Translations under genes and position numbers: made by a program
Notes under the pieces: model-generated
Database searches by the model: none
The model's input: the letters and a program-made list of their open reading frames with translations, nothing else
What the model was told of the DNA's origin: nothing
Shown here: positions 16,287 to 54,661 of the stretch, piece by piece
Numbering within the stretch: the stretch's first letter is position 1
Layout of the letters: each line of letters begins with the position of its first letter
Sequence record: OR525701.1
Strand: one strand, 5' to 3'
From: Escherichia phage vB-Eco-KMB38
Length of the DNA stretch: 64,000 nucleotides

Positions 16287-16347
16287 GTTGTCCTCCTTAT
16301 AAATAGTATTATTATTTATACCAATTTCATATTGGAAGGAGACTATT

Positions 16348-48263: not shown

Positions 48264-49394
48264 TTATGGATATGTATAGATGATACCAGTTTCTAAAGCA
48301 GTTTTATGGATGATATATCCATTACGCGATTCTTGAACATCAACTTCTGGATAATCTTTCATCATCTTCTGGAGAGTGTAACGATGCAGGTAGTATTTAC
48401 TATCTGGGTCGTCAATTTTCCAATCTTTACCTTCTTCAGTCATTTTTTGGATTTCATCCATAACCCACCAACCGCACCAGATGTAAGCTGAAGTACGATG
48501 TGGAAGAGGATGAACATAAGGTAGTTCACCTTCTGGTTCCGGAGCAACTTTATCAGTTACCTGAACTTGACCCGTCGTTTTAACTGTTTTACTATCATAA
48601 TCGGTTGCAGTAACAACTGCAGTAACTTCAATAGTTTGACTTCCAACAGATGAGGTATCAACTGTATACACATTAGTCGATCCTTCTACAGGAGAAGAAT
48701 CTTTCTTCCATGAATAAGTAATTTGTGCCGATTCTGGTGCACCAGTCACATTAGCAGTAAATGTAGCCGAAGCATCTTGTTGAACACTAATAGAAGGAGG
48801 AGTCAATGTAACCTGTGGATTCATTGTCTTCTTATTAACAGTCAGTGATACTTCATTAGAAGTAACTTCTTTTGCATTATAATCATCAGCAGTTACTTGG
48901 GCTACGCATTTAATTCTTTTGACTCCATTTGTAGTTGGAGTATAGTTAAATGTAGAGTTAGTTTCTCCACTAATTTGAGAATCGTCAACATACCATTGAT
49001 ACGTAGCAGATGCACCTGATGGCTGCGAAGCCAAAGCAGCAGTAAATTTAACAGCTGTTCCAATTACTCCTGCTGGAGGACTATTGGGAGTTACGGCTAA
49101 TGTAGTCGTCTGGGTTTTGTTTTTGACTGTAATAGTTGTACTAATTTCAGCTGTTTCAGCTTCACTGTCAGGAACTGGATTTGTTGCAACTACTTTAATA
49201 GTTTTTTGTCCAGCAGGACCCTTTAATACATAACTAAAAGTTGCTGACGTTTCTTCCTGTGGAGCATCGTCTACAGTCCAAGCATATGTAATAGGTCCGT
49301 CTCCAGTTTGACCGCTGGGCGTAGCAGTAAACTGCTTAGTCTGATCTATAACTCCGGTAGGCGTTTTAGGAGTTATATCAACTGTAAAAGCCAT
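48264..49394 (-). CDS. hoc: Highly immunogenic outer capsid protein (Ig-like domains)
   Basis: MAFTVDITPKTPTGVIDQTKQFTATPSGQTG...; 376 aa, closely matches T4 Hoc. Confidence 0.95.
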   Translation of the reverse strand: MAFTVDITPKTPTGVIDQTKQFTATPSGQTGDGPITYAWTVDDAPQEETSATFSYVLKGPAGQKTIKVVATNPVPDSEAETAEISTTITVKNKTQTTTLAVTPNSPPAGVIGTAVKFTAALASQPSGASATYQWYVDDSQISGETNSTFNYTPTTNGVKRIKCVAQVTADDYNAKEVTSNEVSLTVNKKTMNPQVTLTPPSISVQQDASATFTANVTGAPESAQITYSWKKDSSPVEGSTNVYTVDTSSVGSQTIEVTAVVTATDYDSKTVKTTGQVQVTDKVAPEPEGELPYVHPLPHRTSAYIWCGWWVMDEIQKMTEEGKDWKIDDPDSKYYLHRYTLQKMMKDYPEVDVQESRNGYIIHKTALETGIIYTYP

Positions 49395-49403
49395 AAGTTA
49401 TCC

Positions 49404-50072
49404 TTATTTTAATGTTACGAAAGAAGAATTACGAGTTTCGCGAATTAGAACTGATCCATCGCGATTAATATAATAAATTAAGCTAAATAATGTTTGGTGT
49501 GCCGACGCATGTTCAAAACTGGTTGGGCGAGATTTCCAATCAGGTGTTTCGGCTATCCATTGATAAATCCACCAAGGAACAGTAACATACCCTGGGCCTT
49601 TGCCTAATTTAATGAGTGTAGGACTAAAATTTTCAGGCAGAACAAATTTTACTTCTTTATTTACTTCTGGCTCAGGCTCTTTTTCAGATTCAACAACCTG
49701 AGTAATTGCTTCTTCAAATTTATCATGGTCGAATTCTATTTCTTGTTCGACAACTTCTAATACTTCAACTTGTTCTGCCGGAGAATCAAACAACAGAATA
49801 GCTTCTTCTTTAACTTCTTCGTTGGTGAAATTAACACCGTCCACATCATCTGCGGCAGTAATTAAATCGGTGATAGATAATCCATCAGTTTCAGGTAATG
49901 GTTCATTAGCCAGTGCGTTAAGAGCTTCTTCGATATCAATAACAATATTATCGAATGATTTTGTTTTCTTAACACTAATACCAAATTGTGCCGCATATTC
50001 AAACAGTTTAGCTTTGGCTTCCTTTTTATCAGAAAGAGCACGTAACTCTTCAATATAGTCTTTATCGATCAT
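49404..50072 (-). CDS. inh: Inhibitor of prohead protease
   Basis: 222 aa acidic protein at the T4 inh position. Confidence 0.75.
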   Translation of the reverse strand: MIDKDYIEELRALSDKKEAKAKLFEYAAQFGISVKKTKSFDNIVIDIEEALNALANEPLPETDGLSITDLITAADDVDGVNFTNEEVKEEAILLFDSPAEQVEVLEVVEQEIEFDHDKFEEAITQVVESEKEPEPEVNKEVKFVLPENFSPTLIKLGKGPGYVTVPWWIYQWIAETPDWKSRPTSFEHASAHQTLFSLIYYINRDGSVLIRETRNSSFVTLK

Positions 50073-50086
50073 GGTATTTCCTCATT

Positions 50087-50094
50087 ATAAATAT
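50087..50094 (+). promoter_or_regulatory. T4 late promoter TATAAATA upstream of GIY-YIG endonuclease gene
   Basis: Exact TATAAATA. Confidence 0.45.
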
Positions 50095-50121
50095 AACTAT
50101 ATTTATTACATGGAAAAGAGT

Positions 50122-50853
50122 ATGTATCACTTTGTTTATGAGACCGTAAATTTAATTAATGGTAAAAAGTACATTGGCAAACATTCTACAGAAAATTTAA
50201 ATGATTCGTATCTAGGGTCAGGTGTTGCCTTAAATCGCGCTATCAAAAAATACGGAGAAGAATCATTTAAACGTTCAATAATTAAACAATTTGAAACTTC
50301 CGCTGAAGCTTTAGAATACGAAGCTCAGTTAGTAACAGAGGATTTGGTCAAATCTAACGAGTATTATAATATGCGCCAAGGCGGTGAAGGTGGAAGGTAT
50401 AAGTACACCGAAGCTGATAAGACTAAAATGTCTAATAGTGCTAAAGAACGAATAAAGAGGCTTGGTCATAATCTTTTAGGAAAACACAGATCGGAAGAAA
50501 CAAAAAGAAAACTATCTGAAACAAATAAACGTCGATACTCTGAAGACCCAACATGCCACGGGCGGTATGGTACAGGAAAGCCAAAGATTGATAAAATTAA
50601 AGGTCCTAAAAATCCTACAACTCTAAATAAAATTTGTGTTAACAACGGTAAAGAAAACAGATTTATATCAGCCGAGGACCCGATGCCTGAAGGATTTGTA
50701 AAAGGAATGGTCCAACTTAATAGAAAATCTAGAAAGGGCTGTGAAGTAAAACCTACGACCACCGGCAGAATATGGGTAAATAACGGGGCTATAAATAAAT
50801 TAGTAAATCCGTTATCCATCCCAGATGGATATGTTAAAGGCCGTTTAAGGTAA
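50122..50853 (+). CDS. GIY-YIG homing endonuclease (SegE-like)
   Basis: YHFVYETVNLINGKKYIGKHS GIY-YIG motif, basic NUMOD-like C-terminal region; T4 segE occupies this slot; start chosen after GGAAAAGAG RBS. Confidence 0.7.
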   Translation: MYHFVYETVNLINGKKYIGKHSTENLNDSYLGSGVALNRAIKKYGEESFKRSIIKQFETSAEALEYEAQLVTEDLVKSNEYYNMRQGGEGGRYKYTEADKTKMSNSAKERIKRLGHNLLGKHRSEETKRKLSETNKRRYSEDPTCHGRYGTGKPKIDKIKGPKNPTTLNKICVNNGKENRFISAEDPMPEGFVKGMVQLNRKSRKGCEVKPTTTGRIWVNNGAINKLVNPLSIPDGYVKGRLR

Positions 50854-50858
50854 TTATT

Positions 50859-52373
50859 ATGACAGATATTAAAGTACATTTTCACGATTTTAGCCATGTA
50901 AGAATTGAATGCGACGAAAGCGTGTTCTATGAATTACGCGACTTTTTTAGCTTTGAAGCCGATGGGTACAAATTCAACCCGCGTTACAAATATGGGAACT
51001 GGGATGGTAGAATTCGACTTTTAGATTACAATCGTTTGTTACCATATGGGCTTGTAGGACAAATAAAAAAGTTCTGTAACAATATGAGTTATTCTGTATG
51101 GATTGACCCTAAAATCTTTGAGACCGAAGACCTTACCAGAGAAGATTTTGGCGCGTGGCTTTCTAAACAAGAAATTTATTCAGGCAACGCCAAAATCGAA
51201 CCACATTGGTATCAAAAAGATGCAGTATACGAAGGACTAGTTAATCGTCGTCGAATTTTAAACCTTCCAACATCGGCAGGTAAATCACTAATCCAAGCAC
51301 TTTTAGCTCGATATTATCTAGAGAACTATGAAGGTAAAATTCTCATTATCGTCCCTACAACAGCATTGACAACCCAGATGGCTAATGATTTTGTTGATTA
51401 TCGCTTGTTTAGTCATTCGATGATTAAGAAAATTGGCGGTGGTGCTGATAAAGCGGACAAATCTAAAAACGACGCTCCAATTATTGTTGGCACATGGCAA
51501 ACGGTAGTTAAGCAGCCTAAAGAATGGTTCTCTCAGTTCGGTATGATGATGAACGATGAATGCCACTTAGCTACAGGCAAAAGTATTTCTTCAATCATCT
51601 CAGGATTAAATAATTGCATGTTTAAATTCGGTTTATCTGGCTCATTAAGAGACGGAAAAGCCAATGTAATGCAGTACGTAGGTATGTTCGGCGAAATCTT
51701 CCGTCCTGTTAGCACATCTAAATTAATGGAAGACGGACAGGTAACTGAGCTTAAGATTAATAGTATTTTCCTTCGTTATCCGGACGAATTCGCCATTAAA
51801 TTAAAAGGTAAAACATACCAAGAAGAAGTTAAAATTATTACCGGACTAAAACGACGTACAAAGTGGATTGCTCAACTTTCAGTCAAATTAGCTAAGAAAG
51901 ACGAGAACGCATTTGTAATGTTTAAACATGTTACACATGGTAAAGAAATATTTGAAGCTATTAAAGAGCTTGGATACGAAAAAGTTTATTACGTATCAGG
52001 TGAAGTTGATACCGAAACACGTAACGCGCTTAAAGTCATGGCAGAAAATGGTAAAGGCATTATTATTGTCGCATCATATGGAGTATTCTCTACTGGTATT
52101 TCAGTCAAGAATCTTCATCATGTTATTTTTGCCCATGGTGTTAAATCAAAAATTATCGTACTTCAAACCGTAGGTCGCGTGCTTCGTAAGCATGGTTCTA
52201 AAGCTGTTGCTACAGTTTGGGATCTCATCGATGACGCAGGTGTAAAACCTAAATCATTAAATACTAAAAAGAAGTATACTCATCTTAATTACTTGTTAAA
52301 ACACGGTATTGATCGTATCCAACGTTACGCTGATGAGAAATTTAACTATGTAATGAAAACAATTAATTTATAA
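50859..52373 (+). CDS. uvsW: UvsW helicase
   Basis: MTDIKVHFHDFSHVRIECDES...LPTSAGKSLIQALLA; closely matches T4 UvsW. Confidence 0.95.
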   Translation: MTDIKVHFHDFSHVRIECDESVFYELRDFFSFEADGYKFNPRYKYGNWDGRIRLLDYNRLLPYGLVGQIKKFCNNMSYSVWIDPKIFETEDLTREDFGAWLSKQEIYSGNAKIEPHWYQKDAVYEGLVNRRRILNLPTSAGKSLIQALLARYYLENYEGKILIIVPTTALTTQMANDFVDYRLFSHSMIKKIGGGADKADKSKNDAPIIVGTWQTVVKQPKEWFSQFGMMMNDECHLATGKSISSIISGLNNCMFKFGLSGSLRDGKANVMQYVGMFGEIFRPVSTSKLMEDGQVTELKINSIFLRYPDEFAIKLKGKTYQEEVKIITGLKRRTKWIAQLSVKLAKKDENAFVMFKHVTHGKEIFEAIKELGYEKVYYVSGEVDTETRNALKVMAENGKGIIIVASYGVFSTGISVKNLHHVIFAHGVKSKIIVLQTVGRVLRKHGSKAVATVWDLIDDAGVKPKSLNTKKKYTHLNYLLKHGIDRIQRYADEKFNYVMKTINL

Positions 52374-52398
52374 GGGCTTCGGCCCTTAGGAGATAAAA

Positions 52399-52632
52399 AT
52401 GGTACTTGAATTTAAACAATTTTTATACGAAGCATCTATTGACGAATTCATGGGTAAAATTGCTAGTTGTCATACCTTAGAAGGGCTTGAAGAATTGGAA
52501 GCTTATTATAAGAAACGTATAAAAGAAACGGAATTAAAAGATACAGATGATATTTCTGTCAGGGATGCCTTAGCAGGTAAGCGTGCCGAACTTGAAGGCG
52601 ACGATGATGAGGATGAGGAAGAAGACTTTTAA
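52399..52632 (+). CDS. uvsW.1: UvsW.1
   Basis: 77 aa with acidic tail; position after uvsW. Confidence 0.8.
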   Translation: MVLEFKQFLYEASIDEFMGKIASCHTLEGLEELEAYYKKRIKETELKDTDDISVRDALAGKRAELEGDDDEDEEEDF

Positions 52633-54631: not shown

Positions 54632-54653
54632 GTTAACTCCTTTATTGTGTATT

Positions 54654-54661
54654 TATAAATA
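54654..54661 (+). promoter_or_regulatory. T4 late promoter TATAAATA (gene 51); reverse complement of overlapping TATTTATA gives a second late promoter for gene 26
   Basis: tatttataaata in divergent 26/51 intergenic region. Confidence 0.55.

Follow-up and report, generated by a model that had tools for sequence, protein, structure and literature searches.

Free-standing Seg endonucleases are associated with intergenic 'intronless homing', co-conversion and marker exclusion (PMC2988022). The best described system close to the present locus is that of T4 SegE, as reported by Kadyrov et al. (1997) and cited in later papers (PMC2330249, PMC2988022). The enzyme is active and homes into RB30 at almost 100% efficiency, with co-conversion of the flanks (PMC2330249). 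Its cleavage site is placed between hoc.1 and uvsW in one account (PMC2330249) and as 'uvsW' in the other, where uvsW is listed as the target gene (PMC2988022, Table 1). Expression of UvsW is known to proceed from a late promoter (PMC3016281), and Edgell et al. count segE among the T4 endonuclease genes within which a promoter for the following gene is embedded (PMC2988022).

Here, we analysed a SegE-like gene located in a 64,000-nucleotide stretch of the Escherichia phage vB-Eco-KMB38 (OR525701.1), referred to below as the window. The gene is of an already catalogued kind, a selfish nuclease of T4-like phages, related to T4 SegE and placed at the usual inh/uvsW site. It very probably represents a free-standing SegE-family GIY-YIG homing endonuclease in a Mosigvirus, an RB69-like relative of T4, with a predicted nuclease activity. 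The features of the locus are collected in Table 1.

Table 1. Features of the inh-uvsW region of the window.
Feature	Position	Strand	Description
inh (prohead protease inhibitor), left neighbour	49404..50072	-	222-aa ORF, directed away from the insert
T4-type late promoter consensus TATAAATA	50086..50093	+	exact match; first downstream gene: the endonuclease ORF
Upstream in-frame ATG	50110..50112	+	flank-derived; empty sites read TTATTACATGG followed by TAATTT
Inserted cassette, 737 bp	50114..50850	+	alignment to empty sites: ACATGG-insert-TAATT
SegE-family GIY-YIG homing endonuclease ORF (probable)	50122..50853	+	243 aa and stop; Pfam, PHROG and T4 SegE homology
Catalytic GIY-YIG domain	50122..50397	+	about aa 1-92; landmarks F-V-Y6, Y17-I-G19, E67, N83
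NUMOD3-like basic helix segment (GKHRSEETKRKLSETNKRRY)	50398..50517	+	in WSPA and Gravdalen homologues, not in T4 SegE
First C-terminal repeat xVNNGxxNxxI...P(E/D)G(F/Y)VKG	50632..50709	+	in T4 SegE; not in WSPA or Gravdalen
Second C-terminal repeat (IWVNNGAINKLV...IPDGYVKGRLR)	50770..50850	+	common to all four family members
Second exact TATAAATA, in codons (GC)T-ATA-AAT-A(AA)	50790..50797	+	61 nt before the uvsW ATG, within the 3' end of the gene
Seg-linked haplotype / co-conversion tract	50851..50999	+	junction and first 141 nt of uvsW
uvsW helicase, right neighbour	50859..52373	+	UvsW_N E=1.9e-45; ResIII and Helicase_C also match

The first-pass annotation had described a SegE-like GIY-YIG endonuclease between inh and uvsW, and both the identity and the placement are corroborated. 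The protein scores above the cut-offs of the Pfam models SegE_GIY-YIG (PF19835, 30.1 bits, cut-off 25) and GIY-YIG (PF01541, 25.8 bits, cut-off 22.6), for which T4 SegE itself reaches 36.5 and 21.6 bits, respectively. It also matches PHROG 314, 'homing endonuclease' (5.9e-43), and shares 49% identity with T4 SegE over the full length (BLASTP E=6e-77). On the right side, uvsW is assigned by its UvsW_N domain. The minus-strand ORF on the left side has no Pfam match; its designation as inh is based on near-identical annotated inh genes in AlbertHofmann, NBG1 and PhAPEC2 and on synteny with T4. The GC content of the endonuclease gene (0.358) lies within that of its neighbours (0.356-0.363) and gives no compositional sign of foreign origin.

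Comparison with T4 SegE (NP_049795, 205 aa) reveals the same inh/uvsW locus and orientation, a left junction situated 20 nt after the same TATAAATA and the same N-terminal start MYHFVYET. The N-terminal 95 and the C-terminal 65 residues are each about 70% identical between the two proteins, whereas the window protein contains about 51 extra linker residues, including the NUMOD3-like segment, and lacks the 11-residue C-terminal tail of T4 SegE. The homologues of Serratia phage WSPA (Muldoonvirus) and Erwinia phage Gravdalen (Winklervirus) occupy the same locus with 51-53% identity; they share the NUMOD3-like linker with the window protein but are devoid of the first C-terminal NNG...GFVKG repeat, which is present in both the window protein and T4 SegE. 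This repeat is presumed to act as a DNA-binding module. The second repeat coincides with a PHROG 10820 match over residues 212-242. Thus, among the four family members compared, the window protein is the sole one to possess all the modules. The other Seg endonucleases of T4 (SegA, B, C, D, F and G) are of the same GIY-YIG type, with 28-47% identity over the catalytic domain (tblastn), but they have other loci, other targets and other C-terminal regions.

As regards the catalytic domain, disrupted residues would speak against an active enzyme. The ORF is intact, and no residue is lost at any of the 69 alignment columns invariant with T4 SegE, an enzyme shown experimentally to be active. The landmarks F4-V5-Y6, Y17-I18-G19, E67 and N83 are invariant in the four-genus alignment. 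I-TevI, the endonuclease of the T4 td intron, belongs to the same GIY-YIG class and has a modular organization with a catalytic domain, a linker and a DNA-binding domain; NUMOD-type motifs are seen in I-TevI and, as a candidate below the Pfam cut-off, in the window protein (NUMOD3, 17.2 bits against 20.4, E=0.005). An hhalign comparison pairs Y6, Y17 and N83 with Y6, Y17 and N90 of I-TevI, but the two proteins resemble each other very weakly (E=0.005, probability 7%), and the alignment was used solely for the positions of these three residues. The catalytic Glu of I-TevI, E75, falls in an insertion of this automatic alignment, and the Glu pairing is also ambiguous in T4 SegE; E67 precedes N83 by 16 residues, as compared with a spacing of 15 between E75 and N90. 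The region of the catalytic Arg, R27, lies opposite a 9-residue gap, so that its helix is not alignable. Since T4 SegE is active and also has no alignable counterpart of R27, the missing Arg appears to be a family trait and not a lesion. Searches of PDB with the window protein, as a sequence, and with a profile of the four family members returned chance matches only (Hsp70 lid, designed proteins) and so no structural reference point for the catalytic residues, and a single-sequence AlphaFold2 model had a mean pLDDT of 35.7, too low to be used.

I-TevI is encoded within a group I intron, in contrast to the window insert, which is essentially the ORF alone. An intron-encoded origin was rejected, since the insert is intergenic and an Rfam scan of positions 49300-52600 gave no match at E<=1. 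The label 'group I intron endonuclease' attached to the gene in KAW3E185 is a naming carry-over.

Alignment to empty sites delimits the insert precisely, save for an uncertainty of one dinucleotide at its ends, GG being present both at 50112-50113 and at 50849-50850. The TAA stop of the ORF (50851-50853) belongs to sequence common to the empty site. The two in-frame ATGs pointed out in the first-pass annotation, at 50110 and 50122, are indeed separated by three codons (GAA AAG AGT) and would give proteins of 247 and 243 residues, respectively. The upstream ATG predates the insertion, since it is already contained in the empty sites, and T4 has ACTCGG at the corresponding position. All four family members begin with MYHFVY at the second ATG, which is also the annotated start in NBG1 and KAW3E185. 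The functional start is therefore probably the ATG at 50122, even if its ribosome-binding site is poor (GAG 1 nt and GGA 7 nt upstream). No significant RNA structure is predicted for 50099-50180 (z=0.55), and a 6-bp hairpin pairing the two ATG regions was dropped as a candidate because it is not conserved in T4. Alternatively, translation could begin at 50110, yielding a protein with an MEKS extension, and the upstream TATAAATA would then serve as a promoter dedicated to the endonuclease. This ATG is in frame, is situated downstream of where late transcription is expected to begin and belongs to a frame open back to 50071. Nevertheless, both the ATG and the promoter are found in empty sites, no such ATG exists in T4, WSPA and Gravdalen, no Shine-Dalgarno sequence precedes 50110, and the leader would be only about 10 nt long if transcription begins 6-8 nt after TATAAATA. 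Such a use of the upstream ATG and promoter thus seems unlikely.

The window contains 18 exact copies of TATAAATA, as against 8.1 +/- 2.9 expected, and none of the shuffles reached 18; copies on the + strand are mostly located a short distance before ORF starts. The late promoter ascribed to the gene in the first-pass annotation corresponds to such an exact copy, one base before the start given to the gene there. However, it is a motif of the flank and is not restricted to carriers: an identical TATAAATA is found at the corresponding position of the seg-less phages AlbertHofmann, T2 and RB27 and of eight further Mosigviruses devoid of the gene, where it lies 29 nt before the uvsW ATG, as well as in seg+ T4, WSPA and Gravdalen. 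From its position in these genomes, it appears to be the pre-existing, resident late promoter of uvsW; it was not imported by the endonuclease gene.

A second exact TATAAATA, embedded in the 3' end of the endonuclease gene, had been overlooked in the first-pass annotation. It is preserved without mismatch in the window, NBG1 and BEU50 and, at the homologous I-N-K codons, in WSPA and Gravdalen, that is, in three genera, whereas T4 has AATAAATA at this position and, as noted above, no upstream in-frame ATG. The chance that x-I-N-K codons spell TATAAATA is about 0.046 per lineage. The embedded copy is probably a late promoter for uvsW. Scanning of 49900-51100 for sigma-70 promoters and terminators detected no promoter on the + strand and likewise revealed no terminator separating the endonuclease gene from uvsW.

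The gene occurs in 10 phage records at an amino-acid identity of at least 99.6%, and the site is empty in about 150 Mosigvirus records, so that carriers represent about 10 of 160 Mosigvirus genomes (~6%). One more carrier was detected in IMG/VR by a pattern scan, which gave no exact empty-site match; this collection holds too few Mosigviruses for frequencies. The ORFs of the carriers are identical to each other at 242-243 of 243 residues, and their distribution is at odds with the backbone phylogeny. The empty sites are precise, with the junction ACATGG/TAATT. Hence, the gene is not universal, and a conserved empty site, the potential target whose absence would have argued against homing, does exist. 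Beyond Mosigvirus, T4, WSPA and Gravdalen each have a SegE homologue at the inh/uvsW site as well, oriented as in the window and with the same left junction.

Over 24 kb, the closest genomes to the window are both seg-less, AlbertHofmann (99.5%) and PTK (99.3%), while carriers show 97.2-97.6% identity. After removal of the insert, 5.7 kb of the window show 37 differences from AlbertHofmann, of which 34 are concentrated within 144 bp immediately downstream of the insert (50856-50999). The opposite is observed with the carrier NBG1. The tract that encompasses the beginning of uvsW differs from NBG1 at a single position, and cassette and tract together at three positions in 886 bp (0.34%), as against 51 in 2084 bp (2.4%) for the flanks. 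Gene and tract are thus about 7-fold less diverged than the flanks (Fisher p=1.5e-5), and the pattern of differences situates the crossovers within 50075-50113 and 51000-51014. Similarly, gene and tract diverge by 0.41% in L019, where the flanks diverge by 1.5-3.4%. As judged from these comparisons, the genome consists of an AlbertHofmann-like backbone with a cassette of about 0.9 kb common to other carriers; the gene seems to have recently jumped into the lineage of this phage, and the trace left by this event in the sequence is unusually clear.

The same distribution could be accounted for by other histories. The ancestor of this group may have had the gene, which AlbertHofmann and PTK would have lost by recombination with a seg-less phage. 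More generally, the gene could descend vertically from a Mosigvirus ancestor, with repeated loss and no recent gain. Homologues occupy this site in each of four Tevenvirinae genera, which indicates that the association between gene and locus is old, and partial seg-linked tracts found in seg-less genomes could be scars of loss. However, vertical descent predicts equal divergence of gene and flanks, contrary to the values obtained with both NBG1 and L019, and neither of the genomes closest to the window, AlbertHofmann and PTK, carries the gene. A purely vertical history is thus highly improbable.

It could also be supposed that the gene is an inactive, domesticated remnant, kept for the sake of the uvsW promoter or by the rarity of precise loss, and that its patchy occurrence results from ordinary phage recombination. 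Conservation of the embedded TATAAATA in three genera would agree with this, as would the promoter-based retention proposed for T4 endonuclease genes (PMC2988022), the non-alignable catalytic Arg and the heavy recombination in T4-like phages, all the compared flanks being mosaic. Nevertheless, the intact ORF is 99.6-100% identical over at least three backbones whose flanks differ by 2-3%, the transferred patch lies closely around the gene, and its tract extends to one side only, as a nearby double-strand break would lead one to expect, and the Arg is missing in T4 SegE as well, which is an active enzyme. Such a remnant is therefore very unlikely. Collectively, the sporadic presence, the precise empty sites and the one-sided tract in the uvsW 5' end support, on comparative grounds, the gene conversion suggested in the first-pass annotation, either ongoing or recent.

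By analogy with T4 SegE, uvsW is the presumed target gene of the endonuclease. In seg-less phages, the uvsW start lies within 45 nt that do not vary at all among 440 records from two genera, and all the seg+ genomes examined differ in this zone. More broadly, a 'seg-linked' haplotype is common to carriers in Tequatrovirus and Mosigvirus and an 'empty' haplotype is common to non-carriers; T4 (+) and T2 (-) differ by a similarly dense dimorphism over the first ~141 nt of uvsW, which ends at the same point. The tract adjoining the window gene probably holds a cleavage-immune version of the target. Comparison of the inh-uvsW junction with seg-less relatives, proposed as a way to identify the cleavage site, provided the precise empty site and narrowed the putative cut to two zones that fit the data, 50851-50900, corresponding to the uvsW start region, and uvsW nt ~130-145, instead of a single position. 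The linked tract is not strictly needed for carriage, as shown by BEU50 (+), which has mostly seg-less-type sequence at uvsW codons 9-27. This phage carries the same gene with a far shorter linked tract, indicating that it acquired the gene in a separate event.

Several seg-less Mosigviruses contain nested partial patches of the seg-linked haplotype. On one reading, these genomes were cut by SegE and repaired without copying of the gene, and so became immune non-carriers. Furthermore, the window enzyme could be the ancestral full-length form of the family or have an extended recognition site. Taken as a whole, it is tentatively possible that the 5' ~145 bp of uvsW constitute a cross-genus two-allele system that travels with, or escapes, SegE genes, with the partial patches left by post-cut repair without gene copying and the window enzyme being ancestral and full-length or recognizing an extended site.

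The following course of events may be envisaged for the homing process. The endonuclease gene would be transcribed late from the pre-existing upstream TATAAATA and translated from the second ATG despite its poor ribosome-binding site. In a mixed infection, the enzyme would, by analogy with T4 SegE, cut the allele that lacks the gene, either within the 5' end of uvsW or beside it, and the break would be resected and then repaired from the seg+ genome. Repair would copy the 737-bp cassette with about 150 bp of adjoining uvsW sequence, whose substitutions would shield the carrier from cleavage, and the embedded TATAAATA probably keeps a late promoter near uvsW.

For annotation, these data suggest that the gene be named segE-like with a start at 50122, that the upstream TATAAATA be assigned to uvsW and that the internal copy be flagged as its probable promoter. 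The known workings of such elements are not changed by this locus, which provides a clear-cut case of presumed intronless homing in nature. Since this phage and AlbertHofmann or PTK form a near-isogenic pair that differs essentially by the 0.9-kb cassette, the pair is suited to measuring homing frequency, co-conversion tract lengths and target immunity for a SegE variant with a NUMOD3-like module.

The ORF between inh and uvsW encodes a free-standing GIY-YIG homing endonuclease of the SegE family. Its protein scores 30.1 bits with Pfam SegE_GIY-YIG and 25.8 bits with GIY-YIG, above the respective cut-offs of 25 and 22.6; it also matches PHROG 314 'homing endonuclease' (5.9e-43), and a NUMOD3 match stays under the Pfam threshold. 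The gene is followed by uvsW (UvsW_N, 1.9e-45), and the minus-strand ORFs upstream are inh and hoc, as judged from near-identical annotated homologues and synteny with T4; the window genome itself belongs to Mosigvirus, an RB69-like T4 relative. T4 segE occupies exactly the same place. These matches bear out the first-pass annotation of a SegE-like endonuclease at this locus. An intron-encoded enzyme was rejected, as the insert holds little beyond the ORF and Rfam gave no match, and 'group I intron endonuclease', the label of this free-standing gene in the carrier KAW3E185, is a misnomer. An identical protein is already present in GenBank, where 'homing endonuclease' is its predicted function.

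T4 SegE and the window protein share 49% identity overall (E=6e-77), with their first 95 and last 65 residues ~70% identical each, but the window protein carries ~51 additional residues between these conserved ends, including a NUMOD3-like linker segment that T4 SegE lacks. Two further genera, Muldoonvirus (Serratia phage WSPA) and Winklervirus (Erwinia phage Gravdalen), have homologues 51-53% identical to it at the same inh-uvsW site. Four-way alignment of these proteins revealed the complete module set in the window protein alone. In that alignment, the motifs F-V-Y6 and Y17-I-G19 and the residues E67 and N83 are invariant across all four genera, including the T4 enzyme, which is active. When aligned with I-TevI by hhalign, Y6, Y17 and N83 are paired with I-TevI Y6, Y17 and N90, the R27 helix falls opposite a gap and the placement of E75 is ambiguous. 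The first-pass annotation had made its reading depend on intact catalytic residues; neither alignment shows any sign of a lesion in them, the family-invariant residues being kept and the lack of an alignable Arg being a trait of T4 SegE as well. PDB sequence searches and a single-sequence AlphaFold2 model of the window protein were uninformative.

Features of the endonuclease locus and modules of the encoded protein
Feature	Position or distribution	Strand	Basis and remarks
Endonuclease frame	in-frame ATGs 50110 and 50122; TAA 50851-50853	+	direct reading of the sequence
T4-type late promoter motif TATAAATA, exact	50086-50093	+	direct reading
Second exact TATAAATA	50790-50797	+	in the ORF 3' end, 61 nt ahead of the uvsW ATG
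Insert	50114-50850, 737 bp	+	alignment with empty sites; 2-bp GG end ambiguity
GIY-YIG domain	present in the window protein		four-way alignment
NUMOD3-like linker	window, WSPA, Gravdalen; absent from T4		four-way alignment
First NNG...GFVKG repeat	window, T4; absent from WSPA and Gravdalen		four-way alignment
Second NNG...GFVKG-type repeat	all four proteins		four-way alignment

An apparent late promoter with an exact motif had also been assigned to the gene. The motif is indeed exact, though it starts one base ahead of the proposed coordinate, and TATAAATA behaves as a T4-type late promoter element, as predicted from T4 late transcription, since the window contains 18 exact copies versus 8.1 +/- 2.9 in dinucleotide-preserving shuffles, none of which reached 18, and the plus-strand copies mostly lie a few tens of bases ahead of ORF starts. 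However, the same motif was found in all 11 genomes examined that lack the endonuclease gene (seg-less genomes), among them T2 and RB27 from a different genus; in these genomes it lies 29 nt ahead of the uvsW ATG. Because uvsW, in addition, is a gene with known late-promoter expression (PMC3016281), the copy at 50086-50093 appears to be the resident uvsW late promoter, with the endonuclease gene inserted 20 nt downstream. The two in-frame ATGs, separated by three codons (GAA AAG AGT), were correctly noticed earlier. The first of them lies within ACATGG, a stretch of the flank, and is absent from T4 (ACTCGG there), WSPA and Gravdalen; all four proteins begin with MYHFVY where the second ATG stands, and the GenBank annotation of the carriers NBG1 and KAW3E185 likewise starts there. 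Both the promoter motif and the first ATG thus belong to the flank rather than to the insert. The second ATG has a poor ribosome-binding site, as T4 free-standing endonuclease genes typically do (PMC2988022).

The inh-uvsW intergenic region looks like a divergent late promoter pair: AATAAATA on the minus strand at 50100-50107 (7/8 consensus matches, 27 nt ahead of the inh start) stands back to back with the plus-strand TATAAATA, and both are spared by the insertion point after 50113. Exact TATAAATA is also present on both strands at 16298-16320 (16298(+)/16313(-), 8 bp apart) and at 54650-54661 (54650(-)/54654(+), overlapping); these pairs are probably divergent late promoters, and the latter has a T4 counterpart between genes 26 and 51 (L003 6951/6955). 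In empty sites, the flank ATG starts a three-codon mini-ORF, ATG GTA ATT TGA (2209-2220 of the comparison locus L001), with a stop codon that reaches into the start region of uvsW (TGACATG).

The second exact copy of the promoter motif is embedded in the endonuclease gene itself, spelled by the codons (GC)T-ATA-AAT-A(AA) within a conserved G-A-I-N-K. WSPA and Gravdalen carry the identical octamer at homologous codons, preceded by a different residue, whereas T4 segE has AATAAATA there instead of the exact consensus. With the window codon usage, x-I-N-K would spell the motif with a chance of ~0.046, or ~1e-4 for three lineages treated as independent. Edgell et al. listed segE among the T4 endonuclease genes that have promoters embedded in them to serve the displaced gene downstream (PMC2988022), and a scan of the region between the endonuclease gene and uvsW found no terminator-like site. 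We infer from these features that uvsW could be served by the embedded promoter as well as by read-through from the resident one.

The empty site of the seg-less relative AlbertHofmann reads TATAAATATAACTATATTTATTACATGG joined directly to TAATTTGAC and the uvsW ATG; in the window, TATAAATATAACTATATTTATTACATGG is followed by the insert, AAAAGAGTATG...TTTAAGG, and then by TAATTATT and the uvsW ATG. Far from being universal in relatives, a possibility raised earlier, the gene occurs in 10 phage records at at least 99.6% amino-acid identity, with one additional carrier in IMG/VR, versus an empty site in ~150 Mosigvirus records; for comparison, T4-type segE is present in 159 of ~500 Tequatrovirus-level records. 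Over 24 kb, the nearest genomes are seg-less (AlbertHofmann 99.5%, PTK 99.3%), whereas all carriers reach only 97.2-97.6%. Without the insert, 37 differences separate the window from AlbertHofmann over 5.7 kb; 34 of them cluster directly right of the insert, in 50856-50999, and the 40 bp on its left side have none. Versus the carrier NBG1, the gene and adjoining tract show 3 differences in 886 bp and the flanks 51 in 2084 bp (Fisher p=1.5e-5); versus the IMG/VR carrier, the insert is 0.41% diverged, inh 3.4% and the remaining uvsW 1.5%. This clustering and the low divergence between carriers give comparative support to the gene conversion proposed in the first-pass annotation. The window genome is an AlbertHofmann-like backbone with a ~0.9 kb patch common to other carriers, with crossovers at 50075-50113 and 51000-51014. 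BEU50, a third carrier, shares the gene but has just 14 bp of the linked tract (50854-50867) and thus goes back to an independent event. The ORF is intact, with 242-243 of 243 residues identical between carriers. This pattern is most simply read as a gain through homing; less probably, AlbertHofmann and PTK may both have lost the gene via recombination with a seg-less phage.

Two records named mar005P1 (LR027383.1, OZ035759.1) are unlike at this locus, one having the seg-less 45-mer and the other the endonuclease gene. The nearby hoc (48264-49394, minus strand) encodes AlbertHofmann Hoc minus 96 aa, a clean in-frame difference of one Ig-like repeat. Across related Mosigviruses hoc measures 1131, 1419 or 1704 nt, which looks like repeat-number variation through unequal recombination.

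In the abstract of their 1997 paper, Kadyrov et al. reportedly locate the T4 SegE site at the uvsW 5' end. The cut made by T4 SegE in seg-less RB30 and RB52 falls either at the junction between hoc.1(inh) and uvsW or within uvsW (PMC2330249; PMC2988022 Table 1), and the enzyme homes with almost 100% efficiency and co-conversion of the flanks (PMC2330249; PMC2988022). The junction is TAATTTGACATGACTGACATT in every seg-less Mosigvirus examined and TAA-TTATTATGACAGATATT in every carrier. The empty-type 45 nt, GACATGACTGAC...AGTCACGTG, are 100% identical in 440 Tequatrovirus and Mosigvirus records, and the following 100 nt are ~20% different between T2 and AlbertHofmann. The 45-mer GACATGACTGACATTAAAGTACATTTTTATGATTTTAGTCACGTG at the seg-less uvsW start (for example L001 2217-2261; L015 757-801, another comparison locus) is invariant even at synonymous sites and could be a conserved homing site or reflect a nucleotide-level constraint.

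The carrier T4 and the non-carrier T2 display the same dense dimorphism as the window and AlbertHofmann, with the same end point at ~uvsW nt 141. At 31 sites differing between the latter two, T2 goes with AlbertHofmann 20:10 and T4 with the window 18:9; the uvsW differences are mostly silent, only ~five UvsW residues being changed. A ~145 bp uvsW haplotype thus seems to co-travel with SegE-family genes, and the immune target form presumably lies within this seg-linked haplotype. The two-haplotype system has the same last nucleotide in both genera. In seg-less Mosigviruses, the change from empty-type to seg-linked sequence comes at a nested series of positions (50921, 50960, 50969, 50981, ~50985 and after 50999), formed by recombination breakpoints within the first 141 nt of uvsW (window 50851-50999; comparison loci L004-L012). 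A cut near the uvsW start codon fits these positions, with empty-type patches anchored at the insertion site and arising from gene loss or ordinary crossovers. They also fit a cut near uvsW nt 130-145, a position that would agree with free-standing endonucleases generally cutting at a distance from their own gene (PMC2988022); here the seg-linked patches would represent repairs stopping short of the gene and producing immune non-carriers.

The mechanism is the already known one, and the finding, although correct, is an ordinary one. What it adds is modest: a very clean natural trace of probable recent homing, together with a nearly isogenic carrier/non-carrier pair.
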